A DNA stretch of 64,000 nucleotides from Mobula hypostoma (Eukaryota): positions 21,702,001 to 21,766,000 of the forward strand of contig NC_086097.1 in the NCBI RefSeq assembly GCF_963921235.1, in the 5' to 3' direction. The first letter of the stretch is position 1. Each line of letters starts with the position of its first letter. Positions 11,116 to 59,960 of the stretch are shown in pieces. Under the pieces are notes generated by a model. The model was not told the DNA's origin. It ran no database searches and was given only the letters and a program-made list of their open reading frames with translations. A program made the position numbers and the translations under genes.

Positions 11116-12469
11116 ACATAGAAACATAGAAAACCTACAGCACAATACAGGCCTTTCAGCCCACAAAGCTTTGCCGAACATGTCCTTACTTTAGAAATTA
11201 CCTAGGGTTACCCATAGCCCTCTATTTTTCTAAGCTCCATGTACCTATCCAGGAGTCTCTTAAAAGACCCTATCGTTTCCACCTCCACCGCCGCCGGCAG
11301 CCCATTCCATGAACTCACCATTCTGTGTAAAAAAACTTACCCCTGACTTCTCCTCTGTACCTACTTACAAGCACCTTAAAACTATGCCCTCTCTTGCTAG
11401 CCATTTCAGCCCTGGGGAAAAGCCTCTGACTATCCACACGATCAATGCCTCTCATTATCTTGTACACCTCTATCAGGTCACCTCTCATCCTCCGTCACTC
11501 CAAGGAGAAAAGGCTGAGTTCACTCAACCTATTCTCATAAGGCATGCTCCCCAATCCAGGCAACATCCTTGTTAATCACCTCTACACCCTTTCTATGGTT
11601 CCCATGTCCTTCCTATAGTGAGGCGACCAGAATTGAGCACAGTACTCCAAGTGGGGTCTGACCAGGGTCCTACATAGCTGCAACATTACCTCTTGGCTCT
11701 TAAACTCAGTCCCATGATTGATGAAGGGCAATGCACCATATGCCTTCTTAATCACAGAGTCAACCTGTGTAGAAGCTTTGAGTGTCCTATGGACTTGGAC
11801 CCCAAGATCCCTCTGACCTTCCACACGGCCAAGAGTCTTACCATTAATGCTATATTCTGCCATCATAGTTGACCTATCAAAATGAACTACTTCACACTTA
11901 TCTGGGTTGAACTCCATTTGCCACTTCTCAGCACAGTTTTCCATCCTATCAATGTCCCGCTGTAACCTCTGACAGCCCCCCACACTGACAACAACATCCC
12001 CAACCTTTGTGTCATCAGCAAATTTACTAACCCATCCCTCCACTTCTTCATCCTGGTCATTTATAAAAATCACAAAGAGTAGGGGTTCCAGAAGAGATCC
12101 CTGTGGCACACCACCGGTCACAAACCTCCATGCAGAATATGACCCGTCTACAACTACTCTTTGCCTTCTGTGGGCAGCTGGTTCTGGATCCACAAAGCAA
12201 TGTCTCCTTGGATCCCATGCCTCCTTACTTTCACAATAAGCCTTGCATGGGGTACCTTATCAAATGCCTTGCGGAAATCCATATACACTACATCTACGTC
12301 TCTACCTTCATCAATGTGTTTAGTCACATCCTCAAAAAATTCAGTCAGGCTTGTCAGGTACGCCCTGCCTTTGACAAAGCCATACGGACTATTCCTAATC
12401 ATATTATGCCTCTCCAGATGTTCATAAATCCTGCCTCTCAGGATCTTCTCCATCAACTTAACCAAACTG
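11116..12469 (-). mobile_element. Younger 5'-truncated CR1 LINE inserted in an older CR1 3' fragment (~10990-12690)
   Basis: YMDFRKAFDKVPH, GVPQGS, KFADDTK, RPHLEYC; tandem AACATAG tail; 9-bp duplication ATCCATGTA at 11107-11115 and 12470-12478. Confidence 0.9.
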
Positions 12470-12694
12470 ATCCATGTACCTATCCAAACCTCTCTTAGAT
12501 GTTTGAATTGAACCCATGTCCTCCACTCGTACTGACAGCTCGTTCCACACTCTCACCACCTCTGAGTGAAGAAGTTTTTTCTCATGTTCCCCTTAATTAT
12601 TTCATCTTTAACTCTTAGCCCATGACCTTTAGTTGTAGTCTCACCCAACCTCAGTGGAAAAAGGTTGCTTGCATTTATCCTATCTAGACCCCTC

Positions 12695-22424: not shown

Positions 22425-23250
22425 CCATATAGGAGCAGTATTATTATCCATCTCAAGCCTGTTTTCTCCATAACCTTTGATGCCCTTACTAATGAAGAAC
22501 CTATGGCTCTCTACTTTAAGTATACCCAATGACTTGGTCTCCACAGATGTCTGTGGCAATTTTATGTCAATGATTTAGATGATGGCTTTGTGGCCAAGTT
22601 TGCAGACAATACGAAAATAGGTGGAGGGGTAGATAGTGTTGAGAAAGCAAGCAGTCTGCAGAAGGACTTAGTCAGATTAGGAGAATGGGCAAAGAAGTGA
22701 CAGATGAATATCGTGTGGGGAAGTGTATGGTCTCATATACTTTGGTAGAGGGAATAAAGGTGCAGACTGTTTTGTAAGTGGGGAGAAGATTCAAAAATCA
22801 GAGGTGCAAAGGTCCCTGGGAGTCTTGATGCAGGATTCCCGAAAGATTGAGTCAGTGGTGAGGAAGGTAAATGCAATGTTAGCATTCCTTTTGCGTGGAC
22901 TATTGTATAAAAGCAATGATGTAATGCTGCAGGTTTATAAGGCATTGGTCAGACCACATGTGGAGTATTGTGAGCAGCTTTGGGCCCCTTATCTAAGAAA
23001 GGCTGTGATGGCATTGGAGAGGGTTCAGAGGAGGTTCACGAGATTGATTCCCGGAATGACGAGGTTAACGTATGAGGAGCATTTGATGGCTCTGGGCCTG
23101 TACGTGCTGGTGTTTAGAAGAATGGGGGGCGTGGGGGAGGTATCTCTCTGAAACCTACTGGATTTTGAAAGGCCCATATACAATGGATGTGGAGAGCATG
23201 TTTCCTATAGGGCGATTCTAGTACCAGAGGGTACAGCCTCAGAATCTTTT
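22425..23250 (+). mobile_element. CR1 RT fragment, with a short inverted CR1 3' piece at ~22425-22560
   Basis: VRKVNAMLAFL..ALVRPHVEYCEQLWAPYLRK. Confidence 0.85.
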
Positions 23251-29889: not shown

Positions 29890-32320
29890 TCCCAGGTGAG
29901 GCTTTTCTTTCCAGGATATCCTTTTTAAAAGAGTGGAGTTTCCCTTCCTCCAACATTGATGCTGCTCTCACCCGCATCACAGCCAATTCTCATACATCTG
30001 CTTTCACCCCACCTTCCTGCCACCTTAACAGTAATAGAATTCCTCTTGTCCTTACCAATCACCCCATGAGTCTCTGCATCTAACATGTCATTCCCTGCAG
30101 CTTCCACCATCTCCAAAGGAATCCTACCACTAAACATGCCTTTACCTCCCCCTCTCTGATTTCCACAGGGACCACTCCCTCCATGATTCCCTCGTCCATT
30201 TGACATTCCCCACTGATCTCCCTCCCAGCATTTCTCCCTGCAAGCAACAAAAGAGCTGCACCTGCCCATTCACCTCTCCCTCACTTCCATTCAGGGCCCC
30301 AAGCTGTCTTTCCAGGTGAGGCACACTTCACCTGTGAATCTGTGGGTGTTGTCTATTGTGTCAGGTGCTCCCGATGTAGCCTCCCCTGCATTGGTGAGAC
30401 CTGTCGTCAAGCACCTCTGCTCCATAGAACATGGAACATAAAATACAGAAATCTACCGCACATTACAGGCCCTTTGGCCCACAATGTTGTGCCCACCATG
30501 TAACCTACTCTAGAAACTGCCTACAGTTTCCTTAGCACATAGCCCTCTATTTTTCTAAGCTCCATGTACCTATCTAAGAGTCTCTTAAAAGACCCTATTG
30601 TATTCATCTATTGCTACTGTCGCTGGCAGTGCATTCCACGCACCCATCACTCTCTGTGTAAAAAAATTTACCCCTGACATTCCCTCTGTGCCTACTTCCA
30701 AGCACCTTAGAACTGTGCTCTCTCGTGTTAGCCATTTCAGCCCTGGGAAAAAGCCTCTGATGATTCACACAATCAATGTGTCTCATTATCTTATATACCT
30801 CTATCAGGTCACCTCTCATCCGTTGCTCCAAGGAGAAAAGGCCAAGTTCACTCAACCTATTCTCGTAAGGCATGCTCCCCAATCCTTGTAAATCTCCTCT
30901 GCACCCTTTCTATAATTTCCACATCCTTCCTGTAGTGAGGTGACCAGAACTGAGCACAGTACTCCAAGTGGGGTCTGACCAGGGTCCTATATAACTGCAA
31001 CATTACCTCTCGGCTCTTGAACTCAATCCCACTGTTGATGAAGGCCAGTGCACCATATACCTTCTTAACCACCCAGTCAACCTGCGCAGCAGCTTTGAGT
31101 GTCCTATGGACTCGCACCCCAAGATCCCTCTGATCCTTCACACTGCCAAGAGTGTTACCATTAATACTATATTCTGCCAACATATTTGACCTACCAAAAT
31201 GAACCACCTCACACTTATCTGGGTTGAACACCATCTGCCACTTCTCAGCATAGTTTTGCATCCTATCAATGTCCCGCTGTAACCTCTGACAGCCCTCCAC
31301 ACTATCCACAACACCTCCAACCTTTGTGTCATCAGCAAATTTACTAACCCATCCCTCCACTTCCTCATGCAGGTCATTTATCAAAATCACAAAGAGAAAG
31401 GGTCCCAGAACAGATCCCTGAGGCACACCACTGGTCACAAACCTCCATGCAGAATATGACCCGTCTACAACCACTCTTTGCCTTCTGTGGGCAAGCCAAT
31501 TCTGTATCCACAAAGCAATGTCTCCTTGGATCCCATGTCTCCTTACTTTCTCAATAAGCCTTTCATGGGGTACCTTATCAAATGCCTTGCTAAAATCCAT
31601 ATACGCTACATCTACTGCTCTACCTTCATCAGTGTGTTTAGTCACATCCTCAAAAAATGTAATTAGGCTCGTAAAGAACGACCGTCACACTTGATTGGTC
31701 CTATTCTCTCACGTCTTCTCCTCTTGTTCTTCACATACTTGTGGAACACCTTGGGGTTTTCCTTAATCCTGCTTGCCAAGGCCTTCTCATAGCCCCTTTT
31801 GGTTCTCCTAATTTCATTATTAAGCTCCTTCCTGCTAGCCTTATAATTTTCTAGATCTCTATCATTATCTAGTTTCTTTCGAATCTTTTGTAAGCTTTTC
31901 TTATATACCACCTGGGTAGCCTCCAACCTGATGGCATGAAAATTGATTTCTCTTTCCAGTAAAAGAAATTTCTCCCCCTTCTTCTATTCCCTACTCAGGC
32001 CTCTTACCACTTCTAACCTGCCTATCACCCTCCTCCTTCCCTCTCTCCTACACTCTTCTATCAGATTCCTTCCTCTCCAGTCCTTTATCTTTCTTATCCA
32101 CCTGGCTTCACCTGTCACCTTCCAGCTGTCCTCCTTACCCTCCCCCCACCTTTTTCCTCTGGTGTCTTTGCCCTTCTTTTCCAGTCCTGAGGAAGGGTCT
32201 GGGCCAGAAATGTCAACTGTTTGTTCATTTCTGTGGATGCCGCCTGACCTGCTGAGTTCCTCCAGCATTTTGTGTGTGTTGCTCTGGATTTCCAGCATCT
32301 GCAGAGTTTCTCATGTTTAT
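29890..32320 (+). mobile_element. Penelope-like element (29890-30425 and 31909-32320) split by a CR1 insertion
   Basis: Both parts match 47535-48736; GIY-YIG region resumes at CTGGGTAGCCTCCAACCTGATGGCATG. Confidence 0.85.
30426..31900 (-). mobile_element. 5'-truncated CR1 LINE with 262-aa RT ORF remnant (30857-31645)
   Basis: YMDFSKAFDKVPH, GVPQGSVLGP, KFADDTK, RPHLEYCAQFWSP; same subfamily as 11116-12469 and 53320-54115. Confidence 0.92.
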
Positions 32321-36352: not shown

Positions 36353-39307
36353 TTTGGAAGGTGTAATGAAATCGGAGCACCTAGAAGAAACCCACGTGGT
36401 TATGGGGAGAACGTACAAACTCCTTACAGATGGCTGGCGCTGTCATAGCACTACACAAACCGCCATGCTGTTGTTGCACCCATTTTGTCCTTAATGTGTA
36501 CCCCTCTCCTTACCCTCAATTGTTCCCTTATGTCATTCTTTACTTCCATGGAGTATTGTAATTCCAGCTTGTTCTTTTTTAGTGGAATATATCTTCCTTC
36601 CACTCTGCCGAACATCATTTTAAACACTTCTCATCATTGTACTACTTCATTGTTCATTAATACTCCTGTCCATTGTACCTTCCCACGTTCTGTACTCAGC
36701 CAACTCAGAGTATATCTTGTGCCTTTGCTTAATCTGTGCTTCATCCAGCTTTTGTTCAAATAGAGGAGCACCAATTGAGGGAGGATGCTAGATGGTAGGC
36801 AAGGGGTGTTGATGTCCTATAGTCAATGTTGAGTACTACCTGCACTACTCCCTCCTATCCATGCAGCCCCCAATGTAGGACTTACCCAGCAATATTTTGG
36901 AGGCATCTGGAATATTGCAAGTTTTAATTATAATGGGTTTAACAGTGTACAGCTGTTTATTGAAAAATCGGTGGAATAACATCCAAGTTTAGACACCAGT
37001 CCCCAAGTGTTTGTGAGGAAAGAGTTTGCGAAGTCAACTGGACTGTGAGTACCTTTGCCTTGTCTGAATGTCATGATCTATCTGGCTTTATCTCTGATTA
37101 ATTGCTAAATGTTGGCCGGGACACTGAAGAAAACTCCTCCACTGGGTGTTCCTCAAGATAATTCCATAGGATTTTTTATATTTGCATAGGAGACAAGATG
37201 GAGGTTTGGTCTGAGGTCTAACCTTTAAGACATCCTTGGAGTGCTGGCCTAGGACTGAAAGTCAGGCAAGATCTGAACAATATGAAACAGTATTTTTGGT
37301 CAAAGACCCTCTCTCAGACAAGGGATCCTTGACCCAAAGTATTGACTCTGTCTCTCTTACTATAGATGCTGCCCGACCTGCTGGGTGTTCACAACATCTG
37401 TAACTTCTTAATTCTCAGAAAAACGTTTTTCTGGTAGTATGAGAGAGAAAGGGGCTGGGGGACAGGCCAAAAGATTCCACATGGACCACTGCTCGAAGTA
37501 AATTGGGCTCCAGTTCATGGAATATTTACAATTAAGCCCTAACCATGGTGAGATTCTCGAGGTGAATGTTTATCCCAAATGGGTCCCAAATGTCCTTTAT
37601 CTGACTGCTGGTGATAGTCCGTACTAAACACAGATTGGCTGCTATATTTCAAGTTAAAGTTCAAGTATATTATCTTCATAGGCGTACTTCACAGGACGTA
37701 GATGTCATAAAAATTAGCTTGTTGTAGCAGCACAGTACATTACAGACTTGACAGACACAAATTAGCGTCACGAGAGAGCCTGCGGATGCTGGAAGTCCAA
37801 GGCAACACACACAAAATGCTGGAGGAACTCAGCAGGCCAGGCAGCGTTTATGGAAAAGAGTAAACAGTTGAGGTTTCGGGCCAAGACCCTTCATCAGGAC
37901 TCAATTAACATCAACTTAAATTAACATAAATTATACACAACTTTGCATGCGCAAAAATAAACATAACAATAGTCGAAGGCTGAGAGAGAGTGCATTGCTA
38001 GTGTTTTTCCAACGTTACAAGAGAGACCTGAAATCAAGAGATGCTTCATTGGCTCTAATGCACTTTAGGACATCCTGAGGTATGAGGGGCATTGTATAGA
38101 CCCATCTTCCTTCTGCTAACCCGCCCTCGGGGGAGCACTGTTATGCCAATTCCCTGTCATCCGCAGGTTGCTGCTCCACTGTCGTCAACTTTCCTATCAG
38201 ACCTGACAGCAATCAGTCAGTCCATCAAGGCATGAGGCACCCTCTGGATGCTTTATTTTCACAGACATTCTGGGCACATATTTGATCTGTGGGAATAATT
38301 GTACAATCTGTTCTGGCAGTTAGAGATGCCCTTGATCATCTCTCTGTATTCCACAGGCATGAACCTGTCACAGTCTTGCCACTTTATCTTCTTTCATTGT
38401 AACCAGCTCCTACACCGAGCGGCTGATCATATTGGTGAAATAAAAGAAGGCAAGACGTGATTTATTAGCAGGCTACAAAACTCCCACTGTGACCTCTGTC
38501 AGGAACTGAAAATGATCAACAGTAATATGAGGAAGTAGATATCACAATTCATTTCGGGGTCAATAATCCTAGATTCAACTGGTATCAAAGTAATATTTAT
38601 CCCTTCATTTTTCTCATATTTCTCACTGTCACAAAATGATACAAGTGAGAATATATTCCACCCTCGTTTTATAAGAGAGGTTTAAATCCTCCACTTTAAT
38701 TTACATTGACTAGACCGAACATTTCTTGCCATGTTGTCACACTGTCTCTGCCATTGTTTTGAGTGCTCTGAATTATTGTCCATGCACCTTCCAGTTGAAG
38801 CCTTGAAGATCTTATAGTGGTATTAACACCACAAGACCTCCGGTATACGCTCCCTAAAAAAAAGGTATAAATATGAAAAGGATCAGCTAATTGTAAAACA
38901 GTAAAAAATAAGTAAAAAAAAGTTAGCTCAATTAAAATACACACAGAACAGAACAAAAGCCGGAAAGTATATATTAAAAAAAACCACAATAAACCTCAAA
39001 CTCATGAATAGACACAGCAACAAAAAAAATAGGATTATTAACATAAAATGATTATAAAAAGCAAAACAGAATAAAATTTAAAAAAAACTACAAAATTTAA
39101 GGCCGCACAGGAAATACGTAAGATGACAAAAGGGAAGTAACCACCCAGAATCCCCTGGGAAAAGAAAGAAATGACGCAGTTAAAAAGAAAGTTTAGCAGC
39201 CATATTAAGAAATCGAAAGTAAACTTTTCTGCCCAAATAGGGCACAGAAAAGTTAAAACCAACCAATTCACAGCCTCCGATCAACGGAGAAAATTAAAAA
39301 AAGGCAA

Positions 39308-40207
39308 TTAAGATGTTGAAGATGAAAGTTGATCCAGATAACTCTGGGCATCCGATGGAGAATCAAAAAAACGAAGAGCTCCATCTAACATGCGAATCCT
39401 TAGACGTGCAGGGTACAGCAGCGCTGGTCTTAAATCCATCTTATAGAATTCCGACATCACGGATCTGTAACGGACCCGTTGGTCCCAGATTGGTTTACTG
39501 AAATCTTCCACGAATCGGAACTTAAGATCCGAAAAATCAATGAAACCTTTAGATCGAGCGAATCGAAACAGTCTCTCCTTATCTTGAAAATAATGAAAAC
39601 GTAAGATAACATGCCTAGGTCTATCTGACCTAGACGAGTATGATGGGATTCTGTGAACACGATCCAGTAGCGGTGGTTGGTCAGGAAATACAGTAGGGAA
39701 TGCATCTTTTAAAAGTTGGGAGAAATATTTCATAGGGTTGTTAGCTTCCACGGCTTCCCTGACGCCAATCATTCGTAAATTCTGCCGTCGCATTCTAGAT
39801 TCCAAGTCAGAGTTTTTAAAAGTCAAAAAGTCAAGTTTCTTCTTCATTACATTAATTGTTTCTTCGACTTTCCCCATCTTAAGCTCACTTTGTTGCGCGG
39901 ATTTTTGAAGACCAGATATAGCCGACTGATGTTCCGCAATACATGTTTGCATCTTATCAATTAAATCGGCAATTTTCTGGAACTTAGTTGAGATTTCCAT
40001 ATGAATCAGGTCTTTAACAAAGCCCATAATTTCTGTACGAATCATCTCCCTAACAGAGGTTGAAATTTCCCTCTGAATTAACTCCGATATAGCTTCCAAA
40101 GTCACCGGTGATTCAGTCGGAGGGAGATCCGTAGCTTTCGGTTTAACCGGAGGTTTACCATCCTTGCCGTCTTTCCCGTTCTTAGACATAGCAGATCTAA
40201 GTTCCAT
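39308..40207 (-). CDS. L1 ORF1p (coiled-coil + RRM + CTD, Transposase_22-type), 299 aa, uninterrupted
   Basis: Heptad-rich N-terminal half followed by DLESRMRRQNLRMIGVRE, LDRVHRI, PRHVILRFHYFQDKE, FVEDFS, LLYPARLRI. Confidence 0.93.
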   Translation of the reverse strand: MELRSAMSKNGKDGKDGKPPVKPKATDLPPTESPVTLEAISELIQREISTSVREMIRTEIMGFVKDLIHMEISTKFQKIADLIDKMQTCIAEHQSAISGLQKSAQQSELKMGKVEETINVMKKKLDFLTFKNSDLESRMRRQNLRMIGVREAVEANNPMKYFSQLLKDAFPTVFPDQPPLLDRVHRIPSYSSRSDRPRHVILRFHYFQDKERLFRFARSKGFIDFSDLKFRFVEDFSKPIWDQRVRYRSVMSEFYKMDLRPALLYPARLRIRMLDGALRFFDSPSDAQSYLDQLSSSTS

Positions 40208-40360
40208 CCAATTGTCAGAGAATTCAGTTTAATTCAAAGTATTGTAAAAATTGATGCCTTAATAGTTAATTAAAGTATAGCTGACCATAGAGAGAAAAAA
40301 CTCAGAGGTAATGGAGCGAGTCAAGAACGCGACTTCACTCCATGAGCGCTACCGGAAGTC
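40208..40360 (-). promoter_or_regulatory. L1 5'UTR / putative internal Pol II promoter
   Basis: Begins GACTTCCGGT (fish-L1-type 5' end; ETS-like CCGGAAGT on the + strand); CpG-containing; directly upstream of ORF1. Confidence 0.65.
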
Positions 40361-40605
40361 ATGGGGGTAGTTTTAGCGCTTGCTTCTTTCTGGCGGGTCT
40401 GCTTTAGATTTCGCCTTGGGGTCCTGGGGTGGGGGGCGGTGGGAGGGGCTTCACGTTTTAGTTTGTTTCTCTTTGGGCTATATACATTATTGAAGTATTG
40501 GTTACGTCCTTTTCCCCGGTATCTTTTGTATGTTCTGTTTCCTCTCCGGGTCTGTGGGTCGCGCCTATTGTCAATCCTCCTTGTTATGGGTTGACTTTAG
40601 GATTT

Positions 40606-43600
40606 ATGGAGTCTATTATTAATTTTGTCTCCTGGAATACTAATGGTCTTAATCATCCTATTAAAAGGAAAAAAGTTTTTAAAGTGTTCCGGAGACTTAA
40701 AGCACAAATTTTATTTTTACAAGAGACCCATGTACGGAGGGGGGACAGACTACGTTTTTTCAAATTTTGGAAGGGACAACAATTTCATTCGAACTCCAAT
40801 GCTAAGATTCGAGGCGTCTCTATCTTTATAGACTCCTCAGTTACTTTTATACAACAGGATATTATCTCTGATCCGAATGGTAGATTTTTATTGGTTAGTG
40901 GTTTATTATTTAATAAAAAAGTAGTTTTGGTTAATGTTTATGCTCCTAATATGGATTGTCCGGAATTTTATAAATCATTGTTTGATCAGTTTCCGAATTT
41001 GAACGAGTTTTCATTGATTTGGGGCGGAGATCTTAATACCTGTTTATCTCCAGCTTTGGACCGTTCGGCTCCTTTACGGACTTTACCTAATAAATCTGCA
41101 AATTTGATTAATTTTTTCCTTTCTGATTCTGGGTCGACGGACATTTGGCGTTTTCTGCATCCTCAGGAAAAAGATTTTTCCTTCTTTTCACATGTTCATC
41201 ATTCCTATTCAAGAATTGATTATTTTTTCATTGATTCTCGTCTCATTTCTTCAGTGATTAAATGTGATTATGATTCTATAACCATTTCGGATCATGCTCC
41301 ACTTAAGCTTTCTATTAAAATTATGGCCAATATACCAAACAATAGACAATGGCGTTTTAATTCGCTGTTGCTTCAGGACTCGGACTTTGTTAATTTTATG
41401 AATGAACAGATTGAGCTTTTTTTTACAATTAACCATACAGAAGATATTTCGGTTAACACTCTTTGGGACACTTTTAAAGCCTATATTCGGGGTCAGATTA
41501 TTTCGTATTCCGTTGCTTTGAGGAAGAAACAGAAGCAGGAGGAGATGGTAATTGTGGACAAGATTAAAGAAATTGATAAGAAATATGTTATGGCTCCTTC
41601 TGAGGAGCTATACAAACAAAGAACTGAACTTCAAATGGAACACAGTTTACTACTCTCGTCCTCGATTGTAAACCAATTAAAGAAAACAAGAAGTGATTTT
41701 TATGTTCACAGTGATAAAATTGGCAAGCTGCTGGCTAATCAATTGAAATCTAATTATGTTAAATCTCAAATCAATCAGATTTATAACCAAAATGATCGAT
41801 TGATATTGGATCATGTGGGGATTAATCAAACCTTTTGTGATTTTTATTCTTCTTTATACCAATCAGAGTCTCCTCGAGATTCTAAATATATGAATGATTT
41901 TTTAGATAAGTTAGACTTCCCTCTGATTTCACAGGATATGTCTTCTTTATTAGATACTTCCATTACAATGGATGAGATTAAGAATGTTATTTTTTCTATG
42001 AATCTGGGGAAAGCTCCTGGCCCTGATGGGTTTACCGTTGAATTTTATAAATGTTTTGCTTCTTTATTGATTCCTTGGCTCTATAAGGTTTTTGAGGCTT
42101 CTTTGAAACTTGGTAAACTTCCGGAATCTTTTAATAGAGCATCAATTTCTTTAATACTAAAGAAGGATAAAGACCCTGCTCAATGTGCATCTTATAGACC
42201 AATATCTTTATTAAATGTTGATTCTAAAGTTTTTTCTAAGTTATTAGCAAATAGACTAGAAAAAGTACTTCCTTCTATTATTTCGGAAGACCAAACGGGT
42301 TTTATTAAAGGTCGTTACTCTTTTTATAATATTCGTACATTGTTAAATATCGTTTATACTCCCTCACAAAATGTTCCTGAGTGTGTTATTTCTTTAGATG
42401 CCGAGAAAGCTTTTGATAGAGTAGAATGGCCTTATTTATTTAAGGTGCTTGAAATGTTTAATTTTAGCTTGAAATTTATATCCTGGATTAAACTGTTATA
42501 TTATTCCCCTGTAGCCTCGGTTCGTACTAACTCCTTAAACTCACCTTTTTTTCCTCTCTTTCGTGGTACTCGACAAGGCTGTCCTCTTAGTCCCCTATTA
42601 TTTGATATTGCATTAGAACCTCTTGCAATTGCTATTCGAGAATCTTTAAATATTACTGGGATAACTCGGGGATTAAAGTCCCATAAATTATCACTCTATG
42701 CTGATGATTTACTTTTATATATTTCTAATCCTGAGAGATCCATTCCTGCTGTTTTAGAGTTATTAGCACAATTTGGTCTTTTCTCAGGTTATAAATTAAA
42801 TCTTAGTAAGAGTGAACTTTTTCCGATTAATAAACATCTTCCCTTATATTATAAATTTCCATTTAAATTGATTAATAATTACTTTTCATATCTTGGGATT
42901 AAAATTACTTGTAAACATAAAGATTTATTTAAGACTAACTTTTTACCATTAATAGACCATATTACTCAACTTTCATCTAAATGGTTTCCCTTATATTTAA
43001 CTTTGATTGGTCGTATTAATGCAGTTAAGATGTTTTTTTTGCCAAAATTTTTATATGTGTTTCAGGCATTACCAATTTTCGTTCCTAAATCTTTTTTTGA
43101 TAAAGTTGACTCTAAAATTTCTTCATTTATTTGGCAGAACAAGAATCCGAGACTGGGTAAAATACATTTACAGAAAGCTAAGAGAGATGGAGGTTTAGCA
43201 TTACCTAACTTTAGATTTTATTATTGGGCTATTAATATTCGACATATGAAATTTTGGTTACTTGATCGGGACATACTATTTATTCCTAAATGGGTAGCAT
43301 TGGAATTACAATCTGTTCAGGGTTATACACTTGGTTCTATTTTAGGTTCCTCTCTTCCTTTTGATTCGAAACGTCTTAAGCAGGTCTCTAACCCGATAGT
43401 TAAATATGCTTTGCGCATTTGGTTTCAATTCAGAAAATTTTTTGATCTTAATCAATTCGGGTTAGCGATTCCTATTTTAGGTAACATATTTTTTCCTCCC
43501 TCTTTTACGGATCGCGCTTTTCAAACTTGGAAGACTAAGGGTATTTTACGGTTTTTGGATTTATTTTTAGATGGTTCCCTTATGTCTTTTGAACAATTAT

Positions 43601-44382
43601 CTAACAAATATAACTTATCAAGAATACATTTTTTTAGATATTTACAAGTTAGAAATTTCCTAAGTACTATACTTACTTCCTTTCCAATGCTTCCTCCTAT
43701 ATATATTTTAGATTCGATAATTAACCTTAATCCATGTCAGAAAGGTGCATCGGCTATGATTTATAATATTATTATGAAACTTAGGAAAGCTCCATTTGAT
43801 AAGATTAGGGTAGATTGGGAACAGGAATTGGGGCTTACCATTTCTGTGGATGATTGGGGGCAGATTTTACAATTAGTTAATACTTCCTCTATTTGTGCTA
43901 AACATTCCCTAATTCAATTTAAAGTGGTTCATAGAGCACATATGTCCAAAGATAAGTTAGCGCGTTTTTACTCGCATATTAATCCTTTCTGTGATAGATG
44001 TTCGGGGCAGATAGCCTCTTTAACTCATATGTTTTGGTCTTGCCCTACTTTGGAAACTTTTTGGAGAGATATTTTCAATATTATTTCTAAGGTATTAAAT
44101 ATAGATATCTCTCCTCACCCTATTACTGCTATCTTTGGACTACCTAAAATTTCTAGTAATCTTTCCCCTTCAGCCCGTAGAATGATTGCATTTCTTACTT
44201 TAATGGCGAAAAGATGTATTTTACAACATTGGAAAGAGCTTAATGCTCCAACTACCTTTTTTTGGTTTTCTCAGACGATTTTATGTTTGAATCTGGAGAA
44301 AATTAGAAGTAACCTTTATGATTCTTCATTTAAATTTGAACAGATTTGGGGACCTTTTATTCGATATTTTCATTTAATGTAA
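40606..44382 (+). CDS. L1 ORF2p (APE endonuclease + reverse transcriptase + CCHC), 1258 aa, uninterrupted
   Basis: EN: SWNTNGL, LQETH, GGDLN, SRIDYF, SDHAP; RT: KAPGPDG, YRPISLLN, LDAEKAFD, GTRQGCPLSP, YADD, YLGI; C-terminal CDRC-x8-HMFWSC; first ATG in frame is at 40606. Confidence 0.97.
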   Translation: MESIINFVSWNTNGLNHPIKRKKVFKVFRRLKAQILFLQETHVRRGDRLRFFKFWKGQQFHSNSNAKIRGVSIFIDSSVTFIQQDIISDPNGRFLLVSGLLFNKKVVLVNVYAPNMDCPEFYKSLFDQFPNLNEFSLIWGGDLNTCLSPALDRSAPLRTLPNKSANLINFFLSDSGSTDIWRFLHPQEKDFSFFSHVHHSYSRIDYFFIDSRLISSVIKCDYDSITISDHAPLKLSIKIMANIPNNRQWRFNSLLLQDSDFVNFMNEQIELFFTINHTEDISVNTLWDTFKAYIRGQIISYSVALRKKQKQEEMVIVDKIKEIDKKYVMAPSEELYKQRTELQMEHSLLLSSSIVNQLKKTRSDFYVHSDKIGKLLANQLKSNYVKSQINQIYNQNDRLILDHVGINQTFCDFYSSLYQSESPRDSKYMNDFLDKLDFPLISQDMSSLLDTSITMDEIKNVIFSMNLGKAPGPDGFTVEFYKCFASLLIPWLYKVFEASLKLGKLPESFNRASISLILKKDKDPAQCASYRPISLLNVDSKVFSKLLANRLEKVLPSIISEDQTGFIKGRYSFYNIRTLLNIVYTPSQNVPECVISLDAEKAFDRVEWPYLFKVLEMFNFSLKFISWIKLLYYSPVASVRTNSLNSPFFPLFRGTRQGCPLSPLLFDIALEPLAIAIRESLNITGITRGLKSHKLSLYADDLLLYISNPERSIPAVLELLAQFGLFSGYKLNLSKSELFPINKHLPLYYKFPFKLINNYFSYLGIKITCKHKDLFKTNFLPLIDHITQLSSKWFPLYLTLIGRINAVKMFFLPKFLYVFQALPIFVPKSFFDKVDSKISSFIWQNKNPRLGKIHLQKAKRDGGLALPNFRFYYWAINIRHMKFWLLDRDILFIPKWVALELQSVQGYTLGSILGSSLPFDSKRLKQVSNPIVKYALRIWFQFRKFFDLNQFGLAIPILGNIFFPPSFTDRAFQTWKTKGILRFLDLFLDGSLMSFEQLSNKYNLSRIHFFRYLQVRNFLSTILTSFPMLPPIYILDSIINLNPCQKGASAMIYNIIMKLRKAPFDKIRVDWEQELGLTISVDDWGQILQLVNTSSICAKHSLIQFKVVHRAHMSKDKLARFYSHINPFCDRCSGQIASLTHMFWSCPTLETFWRDIFNIISKVLNIDISPHPITAIFGLPKISSNLSPSARRMIAFLTLMAKRCILQHWKELNAPTTFFWFSQTILCLNLEKIRSNLYDSSFKFEQIWGPFIRYFHLM

Positions 44383-44754
44383 TATTTACCCTTCTTGTTT
44401 TCTCTTCACTGTTTTAATGGAGGTCGGGATTGAGGACGTGATTTTAAGTTTAACTCTGTTCGGTTTCAAGTTAGCCCATTGCTTTGCTTTGCTTTTAGTT
44501 AGTTGCACGGTGGGTTTTTTTTTGGGGTTTTTTTTTTCTTTTTTTCCATTGATATATATAAAATCTAGTATACTATTATGTTATCTTGGTTTCTTATGCT
44601 TAAATTACATTGTTTGTAGTATTTTCTTTTTGGTATTGTTATCTTTTGGAATTTTATTATACTTTAACATTGTATTAATGTTTATATGGCTTACCTTTTT
44701 TGTATACTTACTCAATAAAAAGATTTAAAAAGAAAGAAAGAACACCACAAGACC

Positions 44755-44975
44755 ATAGACCATAAGGTATAGGAGCTGAATTAAGCCCGTCAGCCATGCA
44801 GCCCATTAACTCTGCTCCGTCATTCCAACATGGCTGATTTATTATCCCTCTCAACCCCATTCTCCTGCCTTCTCCCCGTAACCTTTGACAACCTGACTAA
44901 TCTAGAACCTATGAACATCTGCTTTAAATATGCTGGATGTCTTGGCCTCCACAGCCATCTGTGGCAATGAATTCA
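44755..44975 (-). mobile_element. CR1 3' end whose tail abuts the L1 TSD
   Basis: GACCATA tail repeats; matches other CR1 3' ends. Confidence 0.75.
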
Positions 44976-45799
44976 GAATCATGTTCCAGTGTCACCGGCA
45001 TATGTTGTGAAATTTGTTAACTTAGTGGCAGCAGTACAATGCAATACATGATAATTTAGAAAAAATTATTAAGTAAATCAATCACAGTAAGTATATATAT
45101 GTATATTAAATAGTTAAATTCAAAATAGTGCAAAAACAGAAATAATATATAAAATAAAATGAGGTAGTGTTCATGGGTTCAATGTCTATTTAGGAATCGG
45201 ATGGCAGAGAGGAAGAAGCTGTTCCTGAATCGCTGAGTGTGTATCTCCTTCCTTAGATTCGCCTCCAACTAAAGAAATTCTTGTTTTGTCAGCTATCTCT
45301 GAAGCTGTTTGACATCGCTGTGAGAGTTTCACAGTTCAGGACTGTAAAACTCCAACAACCCAGTGGCTGAATATTTTCTAGAGTATATTTCTGGTTGGCA
45401 ACACAATGTTGATGAAAGCAGAGTGTTGCATCTTAACATCCAAATGTCATGACTTGTTGGTTTCTTCAATATAAGCTGACTACCCCGGTGTAGAATGGGA
45501 ACTATGCCAGCTTCGTCATAATATAGTCTAGCTGTTGGCATAGCACTTTACAGCGCTAACTAGTGGAAGATCAGCATTCCAATTCCTGTCACTGTATGTA
45601 AAGAGTTTGTACATTTTCCCCATGACTGCGTGGGTTTTTCCAGGTGCTGCTCTGGTTTCCTCTCACGTTCCAAAGATGTACTGCTTGGTAAGGGTTAGTA
45701 AGTTGTGGGCATGCTATGTTAGTGCCGGAAGCACTTGTGGACATCTCCCAGCACATTCCCAGACTATGTTTAGTCTTTGACACAAAAGACGCATCTCAC

Positions 45800-46945: not shown

Positions 46946-47335
46946 CATTTTTGCCCCAACTGTAATGGTGTGAACTGCACATCAGCCTCGGTGCTTTTAG
47001 CTGTAATGCTCTCAGATGTAGCAACTGTACTGATATCAGCTGTAATAATCTCAGCTACACAGGATCGACTGTTCCCTCAGCTCTAATGGATCGACTTGTC
47101 TCAGCTGTAGTAGTTTCAGGTGCTCTGTCTGCTTCTGTAATGTTAGCTATTGCGTTAACTATAAAAGCGTGAACTGCAATGCCTGCTGGAGGATTGTTAT
47201 GAAGATTAACAAGATAGCTTCATTGAAACATGCAGTGAAATATGTCAAATTAAAGTGAGAATTGCGCTGGGGGTAGCCTGCAATATCTACATGGTTCTGA
47301 TGCCAACATAACATGCCCACAACATGCCCATAACA

Positions 47336-48736
47336 ACCTGGTCCATTTCTGACACCTCCCTCCCCTTTCTAGATCTTTCTGTCTCTATCTCTGGAGACAG
47401 CTTATCTACTGATGTCTACTGTAAGCCTACTGACTCTCACAGCTATCTGGACTATTCCTCTTCTCACCCTGTCTCTTGCAAAAATGCCATCCCCTTCTCG
47501 CAATTCCTCCGTCTCCGCCGCATCTGCTCTCAGGATGAGACTTTTCATTCTGGGACGAGGGAGATGTCCTCCTTTTTTAAAGAAAGGGGCTTCCCTTCCT
47601 CCACCATCAACTCTGCTCTCAAACGCATCTCCCCCATTTCACGCACATCTGCTCTCGCTCCATCCTCCTGCTACCCCACCAGGAATAGGGTTCCCCTTGT
47701 CCTCACCTACCACCCCGCCAGCCTCTGGGTCCAACATATAATCCTCTGTAACTTCCTCCACCTCCAACGGGATCCCACCACTAAGCATATCTTTCCCTCC
47801 CCGCCTCTCTCTGCTTTCTGCAGGGATCACTCCCTATGCGACTCCCTTGTCCATTCATCCCTCCCCATCCCTCCCCACTGATCTCCCTCCTGGCACTTAG
47901 CCTTGTAAGCGGAACAAGTGCTACACATGCCCTTACACTTCCTCCCTCACCACCACCATTCAGGGTCCCAGACAGTCCTTCCAGGTGAAGGGACACTTCA
48001 CCTGTGAGTCAGCAGGGGTGATATACTGAGTCCGGTGCTCCCGATGTGGCCTTCTATATATTGGCGAGACCCGACGCAGACTGGGAGATCGTTTCGCTGA
48101 ACACCTGCGCTCTGTCCGCCAGAGAAAGCAGGATCTCCCAGTGGTCACACATTTTAATTCTACGTCCCATTCCCATTCTGATATGTCTATCCACGGCCTC
48201 CTCTACTGTAAAGATGAAGCCACACTCAGGTTGGAGGAACAACACCTTATATTCCGTCTGGGTAGCCTCCAACCTGATGGCATGAACATTGACTTCTCAA
48301 ACTTCCACTAATGCCCCGCCTCCCCCTCGTACCCCATCCATTATTTATTTATATACACACATTCTTTTTCTCTCTCTCCTTTTTCTTCTGTCCCTCTCAC
48401 TATACCCCTTGCCCATCCTCTGGGTTTTTCCCCCCTTCCTCTTTTTCTCCCTAGGCCTCCTGTCCCATGATCCTCTCATATCCCTTTTGCCAATCACCTG
48501 TCCAGCTCTTGGCTCCATCCCTCCCCCTCCTGTCTTCTCCTATCATTTTGGATCTCCCCCTCCCCGTCCCACTTTCAAATCTCTTACTAGCTCTTCCTTC
48601 AGTTAGTCCTGACGAAGGATCTCGGCCCGAAACACCGAATGTACCACTTGCTAGAGATACTGCCTGGCCTGCTGCGTTCACCAGCAACTTTTATGTGTGT
48701 TGCTTTAAGTTCGAGCATCTGCAGATTTCCTTGTGT
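47336..48736 (+). mobile_element. 5'-truncated Penelope-like element (RT C-terminus + GIY-YIG endonuclease + terminus), few disabling mutations
   Basis: LPFLDLSV..TDVYCKPTDSHSYLDYSSSHP..QFLRLRRICS; GVIY*VRCSRCGLLYIGETRRRLGDRFAEH; 11-bp duplication ATGCCCACAAC at 47313-47323 and 48737-48747. Confidence 0.92.
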
Positions 48737-58113: not shown

Positions 58114-59960
58114 TCATCTGTGGACACGGAGGTGGCTCTGCAGGCCCAGTCTGGAAGCGCAGAGTCTAGCACAATGGGGGCACTGGAAGTCCGTTGTTGT
58201 AATAATTGTGGCTGCTGTTCTGTGATGCCGCTCAGTGACAAGTCTGTTCAGGAGAATGCAGGCAAAAATCTTGCCTGCAATGGACAGCAGTGAGATAGCC
58301 CTGTAGTGTCCGCAGTCTGATTTGCTTCCCTTGTTCTCGTAGAGAGCCATGATGAGAGCGTTGCTGAAGTCGTCAGTCATCTCCTCTGTGATCCGGATGT
58401 CTTGGAACGCCTGTAAGGCGTTTGGGCCTAATGCTTTGTAGATCTCGGCAGGAATGCCATCCTGCCCTGTTGCTTTATTTGAGTTCATCTGCGAGATCGC
58501 TCTCTTGATCTCATCAGTAGAGGGCAGCAGGTCTAGGTCATCCAGGACTGGCTGCTGAGGAATCTGCTGTAAGACATCAGGATCAACTGTGGACGGCCTA
58601 TTGAGTAGGTTGAAAAAGTGTTCAGCCCAGCGGATTTTCAGTCCTTCCTGGTCTTTGGTCAGGCTCGACCCGTCAGATGACAGCAAGGGGGAGCATCCTG
58701 ATTTAGAAAGACAACAAGCTGACTTTATGGCGCTGAAGAACTCTCTGGTGGTATGCATGTCTGCATAGCGTTCCACCTGCTCAGCCTTTCTCTGCCACCA
58801 CTCGTCCTGCATTTCTCGCAGTTCTGCCCGTACTTTGGACTGCAGGTGTTTAAACTTGTCTGTCTTTGAGACAGATGACCGGTCATTCTGCCAGTCTGCA
58901 TAGGCCTTGTTCTTGGCCTGAAGGGCTGCTGAAATGGTCTCGTGGTTTTCATCAAACCAGTCTTGATGCACTCGGGTTTTCTGTCCGAGTACAGTTGTTG
59001 CAGTCTGCGCGATGACATCTTTGAACTGCGTCCACTTTTCAGAACAAGTTCCCACAAGCGGTGAATTGCCGGAGAGTTTTTCATTAAGTATATCTCGAAA
59101 ACGTTGGACTTGACCTGGGTCTTGCAGCCTGCCAATGTTGAATGACACTCTGACAGTCTTTGGCTGCTTACGATGCAAAGGGGCTACATGCAGGTTGAGG
59201 ACCGACCGAACCAGCCTGTGATCTGTCCAACACTCAGCACCTCGCGTGGCCTGGGTGATGGTGATGTCTTGAAGGTCACGCTGGCGTACTATGACATAGT
59301 CGAGTAGGTGCCAGTGTTTCGATCTGGGACGCATCCGGGTTGTTTTGTATTTGTTTGCAAGTCTGAACATCGTGTTAGTGATGCACAGGTTGTGCTCGGC
59401 ACACTTGCTCAGAAATAGCAGGCCGTTACTGTTTAGTTTTCCCACCCCATGTCTCCCAAGGACTCCATCCCAGTTGTCGCTGTCTGTCCCCACCCTAGCG
59501 TTGAAGTCACCCAAGTTGACGAGTTTGTCGCTGGCAGGGGTTGTCTGAATAGTCTGGTCCAGGTCCTTGTAGAACCTTTCCTTGTCTTCGTATGGACTCA
59601 TGAGAGTTGGTGCATAGACACTGACTATGGTAATATACCGGGACTTGCTGAGAGGAAAGCGGAACTTAGGGATATTCTTCAGCTAAGCAGTATTGATTGC
59701 AAAACCTACTCCGTGGATCCTGTTGTCAGTCTGTGATTTCCCTTTCCAAAAGAACGTATATCCACTCGCTGCTTCCTGTAATGAACCCTCGTCTACAAGC
59801 CTAGTCTCACTGAGTGCAGCGATATCAATGCGATAATGGCGAAGTTCAGTCGCTATGAGTGCTGTTCGTCTTTCAGGCCTTGCCACCTTGTCTCTAGCCA
59901 GCAAGATGCGGACGTTTCAGGCTCCAAAGATGAGTTTTCTTTGATTTGTTTTTCTTGATG
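58114..59960 (-). pseudogene. RTE ORF remnant (stop/frameshift in EN; 495-aa open segment 58114-59601)
   Basis: ORF track shows 59683-59904 and 58114-59601; no QG..LSP or YADD motifs. Confidence 0.85.

Follow-up and report, generated by a model that had tools for sequence, protein, structure and literature searches.

A young full-length L1 of Mobula hypostoma with an inverted 5' part that is bounded by an inverted repeat native to its family

L1 copies with an inverted 5' part are common and have been attributed to chance microhomology. The twin-priming model for such 5'-inverted copies reportedly goes back to Ostertag and Kazazian in 2001. In this scheme the second end of the target anneals inside the L1 RNA and primes a second cDNA, the two cDNA ends are joined by short complementarity, and microhomology is predicted at both joints; 639 of 2,068 human and chimpanzee L1 insertions were assigned to it (PMC2912911). 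Human twin-primed copies are typically 5'-deleted and inverted near the 3' end (median 5.15 kb), and among 1,703 of their junctions 1,120 show a deletion and 283 a duplication (10.1101/2024.08.27.596794). A second point of reference are the vertebrate L1 families of the fish type. Thirteen of 17 zebrafish L1 families carry CTTCCGG at their start, many fish and frog spacers show G-rich tracts at a place similar to that described below, and the main text of that study reports no spacer structure shared between families (PMC5381506). Finally, a single binding site for GABP raised transcription in the reverse direction in four of six promoters which were already functional (PMC2077898).

In a 64-kb stretch of Mobula hypostoma NC_086097.1 (the window, to which all positions refer) we found a fish-type L1 of 5,902 nt, which lies at full length (38839-44740) between the two 14-bp copies of a target site duplication (TSD). 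Within this element the block 38839-40360 is inverted. It comprises the 5'UTR of 153 nt, ORF1 and the first 462-469 nt, that is two thirds, of the spacer between ORF1 and ORF2. The individual features are:

38825..38838, plus strand: left TSD, 14 bp; its last 4 bases are the outer part of the left arm
38839..38852, minus strand: left edge of the inverted block, formed by the inner part of the antisense 5' motif from the spacer
38839-38845: shared 7-nt core within the left arm
38846..39307, minus strand: first part of the ORF1-ORF2 spacer, inverted, T-rich in the sense direction
39308..40207, minus strand: ORF1, 299 aa, intact, in opposite orientation to ORF2 (L1 RNA-binding domain, PF02994, E 8.8e-10)
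40208..40360, minus strand: full 5'UTR, 153 nt, reaching back to the ETS-type start motif; resembles the starts of zebrafish L1 consensus sequences
40344..40360, minus strand: right arm, the first 17 nt of the element
40350-40360: inversion junction, an 11-nt stretch which fits the 5' end and the spacer alike
40361..40605, plus strand: second part of the spacer, not inverted, with a G-rich tract
40606..44382, plus strand: ORF2, 1258 aa, intact (PF03372, PF00078, PF13966)
44383..44740, plus strand: 3'UTR, T-rich, with a polyadenylation signal (44714-44719) and an A-rich tail (44727-44740)
44741..44754, plus strand: right TSD, 14 bp

The element shows all characteristics of the L1 clade (fish type), namely the ORF1 and ORF2 domains, TSD, polyadenylation signal, tail, start motif and long spacer, the latter two compared by eye with the text and supplement of PMC5381506. 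ORF2 codes for an endonuclease (APE), a reverse transcriptase and a C-terminal zinc-binding region; 488 homologues were found, and the named ones are ORF2 proteins of fish L1 elements with 43-47% identity. For ORF1 there were 13 homologues, the two named ones being fish L1 ORF1. With the fish-type families the element also shares the short 5'UTR with a GACTTCCGGT-type start, the long T-rich spacer with a G-rich stretch, the T-rich 3'UTR with AATAAA and tail, and the sizes of both ORFs (PMC5381506). By comparison of consensus starts the 5' end of the L1 is genuine, since the same motif opens the L1 consensus sequences of zebrafish, lizard and opossum (PMC5381506). The G-rich tract is located at 40419-40448, shortly past the spacer motif. 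Rfam returned no match between 38000 and 46000. As a consequence of the inversion, the promoter of this copy points outward into the left flank and ORF2 is without an upstream sense promoter.

The bases before the left TSD form a TT/AA-type nick site, the preference of the L1 endonuclease being TTTT/AA (PMC2912911). Compared to its un-inverted order, which would have 5,906 nt, the element has lost only 4 nt, and these are replaced by the end of the TSD. An earlier note on this DNA had described the edges of the inverted block as imperfect inverted repeats, and at 38835-38852 and the reverse complement of 40344-40360 we indeed find 15 matches in 18 aligned columns, with an exact 7-nt core common to both arms (38839-38845 and 40350-40356). 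The overlap between TSD and left repeat, also claimed there, amounts to four bases. Because these last four bases of the TSD are at the same time the first four of the left arm, the left arm in the window consists of 4 bases from the target and 14 from the element. In the native, un-inverted order the number of matching columns rises to 16 of 18, with an exact stretch of 11. The outer four pairs rest on the four 5'-terminal bases of the native element, which are inferred here from the start motif shared by vertebrate L1 elements. With a general repeat finder the arm pair did not appear among the best 25 of 729 inverted pairs, ranked by length.

If the arms are a property of the family, the antisense copy should be present in the spacer of copies that are not inverted. 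Contigs of four public runs were aligned to 38500-45100. Two of these runs are from organism A: X1, possibly the source sample, and X5, which stems from another sample and study. Two contigs of X1 and one of X5 join 38846 to 40350 on opposite strands, with 7 letters that fit both sides. This un-inverted joint is the first listed and the only opposite-strand one among the best 15 of 376 joints. On its shorter side the X5 joint contig covers 148 letters. An X5 contig of the same depth deviates in its letters at 40424 and 40437, has insertions at 38902 and 38975, and hence belongs to another locus. Since the contigs of other copies connect 38846 and 40350 through seven shared letters, it is confirmed that the 5' motif recurs in antisense within the un-inverted spacer and that no gap exists between the breakpoints. 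Thus, the earlier note was right in placing such a copy natively in the spacer, and both details which it had proposed to check, an antisense motif directly before the G-rich stretch and breakpoints without a gap, were found in the contigs of other copies. For X9 and X13 (organisms B and C) the joint count was 0, at a cover just upstream of the motif which is thin or nil, so that this count speaks neither for nor against the joint there.

The locus resembles human and chimpanzee 5'-inverted L1 elements in several respects (PMC2912911, 10.1101/2024.08.27.596794). The inverted 5' and the forward 3' part are bracketed by one TSD of typical length, an A-tail is present, the breakpoints are adjacent in element coordinates, and the inversion joint, apparently also the target joint, shows microhomology. 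Unlike those elements, this copy has a complete 5' end, its inversion point is located 1.5 kb from the start instead of near the 3' end, its junction shows neither deletion nor duplication, and both joints lie on a native inverted repeat (PMC2912911, 10.1101/2024.08.27.596794). The homology at the junction, seen as 7 shared letters at the joint in other copies, extends over 11 nt here, compared to 2-5 nt in about 70% of human 5' joints (PMC2912911, 10.1101/2024.08.27.596794).

We favour the view, with a probability of roughly 0.55, that this is a young full-length L1 whose 5' 1.5 kb were inverted at integration by twin priming, both joints being set by the native inverted repeat of the family. 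Following the first nick, cDNA synthesis would be primed from the A-tail. The second target end would anneal to the RNA immediately 3' to the shared core and prime a second cDNA, which would run to the first base of the RNA. The first cDNA would stop at the motif, possibly at the predicted helix between 5' end and spacer which is described below, and the two cDNA ends would be joined via their 11-nt complementarity. Such steps on the native repeat would account for the precise junction and the complete 5' end, and the repeat would likewise explain why the copy departs from the human twin-primed pattern. Twin priming is preferred because it is an established route, judged by its share among human and chimpanzee insertions (PMC2912911), and because the copy is young. 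The youth of the copy is evident from the X5 contigs, as six of the eight listed differ from it by 0-2 letters over 308-650 nt; there was therefore little time for a later rearrangement.

Some support for priming by the target comes from the sequence of its end. Its last ten bases pair at 7 of 10 positions, the last base being mismatched, with the RNA directly past the core and in the exact register of the junction, a pairing equalled or beaten at only 21 of 5,832 positions. The primer duplex is weak (-6.3 kcal/mol), and a normal full-length 5' join would likewise leave three matching bases where the TSD ends. A single inversion point would hit the motif with a chance of about 18 in 5,906 (approximately 0.3%), a figure to be read with the finding having been selected from a very large scan, which enriches for neat coincidences of this kind. 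A second copy inverted at the same point was seen neither in the 64-kb window nor among the best 15 of 376 joints.

Three routes, twin priming, fold-back and later recombination, all give the observed sequence. The block flipped between two repeats, as the earlier note had pictured it, does yield this sequence but is one of these three, and an event at the time of insertion is likelier. If the flip came after insertion, the L1 would first have integrated at full length in the normal orientation, with 3 nt of microhomology at its 5' join, and template switching or microhomology-mediated repair would later have turned the DNA between the arms by way of the 7-nt core. Exactly the observed structure would result, with both joints on the arms and the TSD end in register with the start motif, and no further coincidence is needed. 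Against this, two reciprocal exchanges would be required between arms of less than 20 nt which are 1.5 kb apart, and in a young copy. A single-copy contig of X1 runs without any difference from the unique flank to 38867, that is 29 letters into the inverted element and 22 past the shared core; it crosses the core and does not end there, a weak sign that sample S1 holds no second orientation. No joint from the flank to the 5' end occurred among the best 15 of 376, where a single-copy joint would rank too low to appear. We regard a later inversion as unlikely.

With 29 letters in the element the X1 flank contig is just too short to count as a bridge, for which 31 are required, but it speaks for the inverted left joint and bears also on the question of an assembly artefact at the repeat. 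Artefacts may be suspected here, as the family is very highly repeated (its summed contig depth is four orders of magnitude above that of the flank, which is not a copy number) and the right-hand junction is not among the matches listed. However, this short-read contig (record 1), from what is maybe the source sample, leads from the unique flank across the left joint into 22 letters diagnostic of the inversion, and the TSD is intact on both sides, which makes an artefact very improbable.

Instead of the target, the cDNA itself could have served as primer. The 3' end of a complete first cDNA would fold back, anneal to the motif's internal copy and prime the second strand; following a nick, the target end would be attached at the stem base. 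The cDNA end and the internal copy can form a DNA duplex of -19.6 kcal/mol, and such self-priming explains why the 5' end is complete and nothing is deleted at the junction. For inversions of flanking genomic DNA it has been proposed that 3' ends at L1-made breaks anneal to themselves (10.1101/2024.12.14.628481), but for L1 cDNA we found no report of this in the literature searched. The extra cleavage step which this route requires is purely inferred, and by sequence alone its product is indistinguishable from that of twin priming. We consider fold-back rather unlikely, and twin priming guided by the native repeat remains our preferred explanation.

The strength of the repeat was evaluated against chance. 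The alignment score of the native order was equalled in one of 2000 dinucleotide shuffles, and an exact 11-nt match arose within the first 25 nt in 8 and at the terminal 11 in 3 of 2000. The same score was also reached by 13 of 230 ordinary 25-mers of the element, all of them A/T-rich (16-36% GC). The duplex energy of the first 17 nt is -29.7 kcal/mol, the best of 342 other tiles reaching -25.7 at a mean of -13.9, and none of 300 shuffled 17-mers equalled it. Nine of the 11 exact bases constitute an ETS/GABP-type core. With this 9-nt core fixed and the flanks randomised, the observed pairing was reached in 21-80 of 20,000 cases (0.1-0.4%) for nt 1-17, a window chosen post hoc, and in 289-941 of 20,000 (1.4-4.7%) for nt 1-25. 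Because random flanks reach the observed pairing so seldom, two unrelated ETS sites explain the repeat only in part; it is probably a copy or a selected pairing, with moderate support from these tests.

To see how widespread the repeat is, all 36 spacers in the supplement of PMC5381506 were read by eye. The antisense core is absent from all 14 long spacers there that belong to families with the same start motif, 13 from zebrafish and one from opossum, in which respect this element differs from the fish-type families described. By the same comparison, conservation or covariation of a long-range helix was seen in none of these 14 families (PMC5381506). Two near matches, in zebrafish L1-1B (with one extra base) and in L1-8, which lacks the start motif, were taken to be fortuitous (PMC5381506). 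As far as tested, the repeat thus appears specific to one L1 family.

As to its origin, it is probable that the repeat is either a neutral scar, left by an inversion or a template switch which the family's source element once underwent, or a second ETS site which binds the same factor. Both are in line with the absence of an antisense copy from the 14 comparable vertebrate spacers (PMC5381506), with the ETS/GABP-type core among the exact bases, judged by the GABP consensus (PMC2077898), and with a further copy of the 8-nt core in ORF2 at 42117. The second ETS site is opposed by the test with a fixed core, since random flanks reach the observed pairing so rarely; the scar is opposed by none of the results obtained and would be the likeliest origin. 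The core copy in ORF2 (42117-42124, sense orientation) is in itself probably due to chance. With bidirectional GABP/ETS sites the spacer motif shares the 8-nt GABP consensus core (PMC2077898). As a single GABP site can raise transcription in the reverse direction, the spacer motif could possibly act as an antisense promoter; the published single sites acted within promoters that were already functional (four of six; PMC2077898).

That the spacer copy could pair with the 5' end of the RNA had been suggested before, and such a pairing appears in the predicted fold. In the first 1,786 nt of the native order, nt 1-17 are predicted to pair with the spacer with probabilities of 0.88-1.0. The predicted helix has 17 pairs, one bulged A and one G-U, and would close a loop of 1.5 kb; cap binding, ribosomes and ORF1p could prevent it. 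Adjacent to it, nt 18-50 (40311-40343, minus strand) are predicted to form a strong 5'UTR hairpin, and by eye a similar stretch is found in the 5'UTR of zebrafish L1-17B (PMC5381506). It is conceivable, but doubtful in our opinion, that the first 17 bases and the spacer form a panhandle around 5'UTR and ORF1 which would switch between cap-dependent translation of ORF1 and internal initiation at ORF2. A programmed full-length inversion with intact ORFs and an outward-facing promoter would then be a by-product.

Some observations concern the surroundings of the element and its relatives. The flank contigs of organisms B and C end at 38824, before the TSD, and therefore neither runs into this L1. 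On its other side the L1 adjoins the end of a very high-copy repeat (44755-44990), which may itself be missing in organisms B and C, since their flank contigs end at 38824. Its short tail-like units presumably represent the 3' end of a CR1-type element on the minus strand. Broken CR1-like reverse-transcriptase pieces occur at 190-1153, 11582-12498, 22828-23151 and 30857-31600, and for the last of these the closest named sequences are from Stegostoma (76%), Chiloscyllium (70%) and, over a shorter part, Mobula (77%). Further, an ORF of 495 aa at 58114-59601 (minus strand) resembles an RTE-type endonuclease region and one of 185 aa at 47324-47881 (plus strand) the end of a Penelope-type reverse transcriptase. 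With blastn no second copy of the L1 was found in the 64-kb window. One X1 contig (depth 294) skips 76 nt of ORF1 (39998-40075), has 4 other letters instead and suggests a deleted subfamily.

Scans for full copies or spacer-bearing relatives gave one weak locus in metagenomes (38% identity over 50 residues), one weak match in plasmids, and 0, 0 and 1 distant locus in viral contigs. Contigs of prokaryote genomes gave 0, 10 and 0 loci, and the three closest of the ten (33-47% identity) are short pieces internal to ORF2. These three (L003, L004 and L005) are L1 ORF2-like, lie on short contigs in bacterial genome records and likely represent host contamination.

Inverted L1 elements as such are known; a built-in mirror copy that sets the point of the flip is an unusual twist. 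Our literature search, which covered mainly papers available without subscription, returned neither a native repeat between 5' end and spacer nor an inversion fixed by one. The main visible effect of the repeat would be to funnel full-length inversions to one point. Without recurrence or covariation, the locus would amount to one tidy insertion and a quirk of its family. If the helix between 5' end and spacer is kept by selection, it bears on the translation of ORF2 in long-spacer L1 elements (PMC5381506); if the repeat is a scar, the exchange of 5' halves between L1 families is documented in it. Where the point of inversion is dictated by a family's own sequence, one would have a natural test of how such inversions form, because each of the three routes considered above should leave its own pattern throughout the genome.
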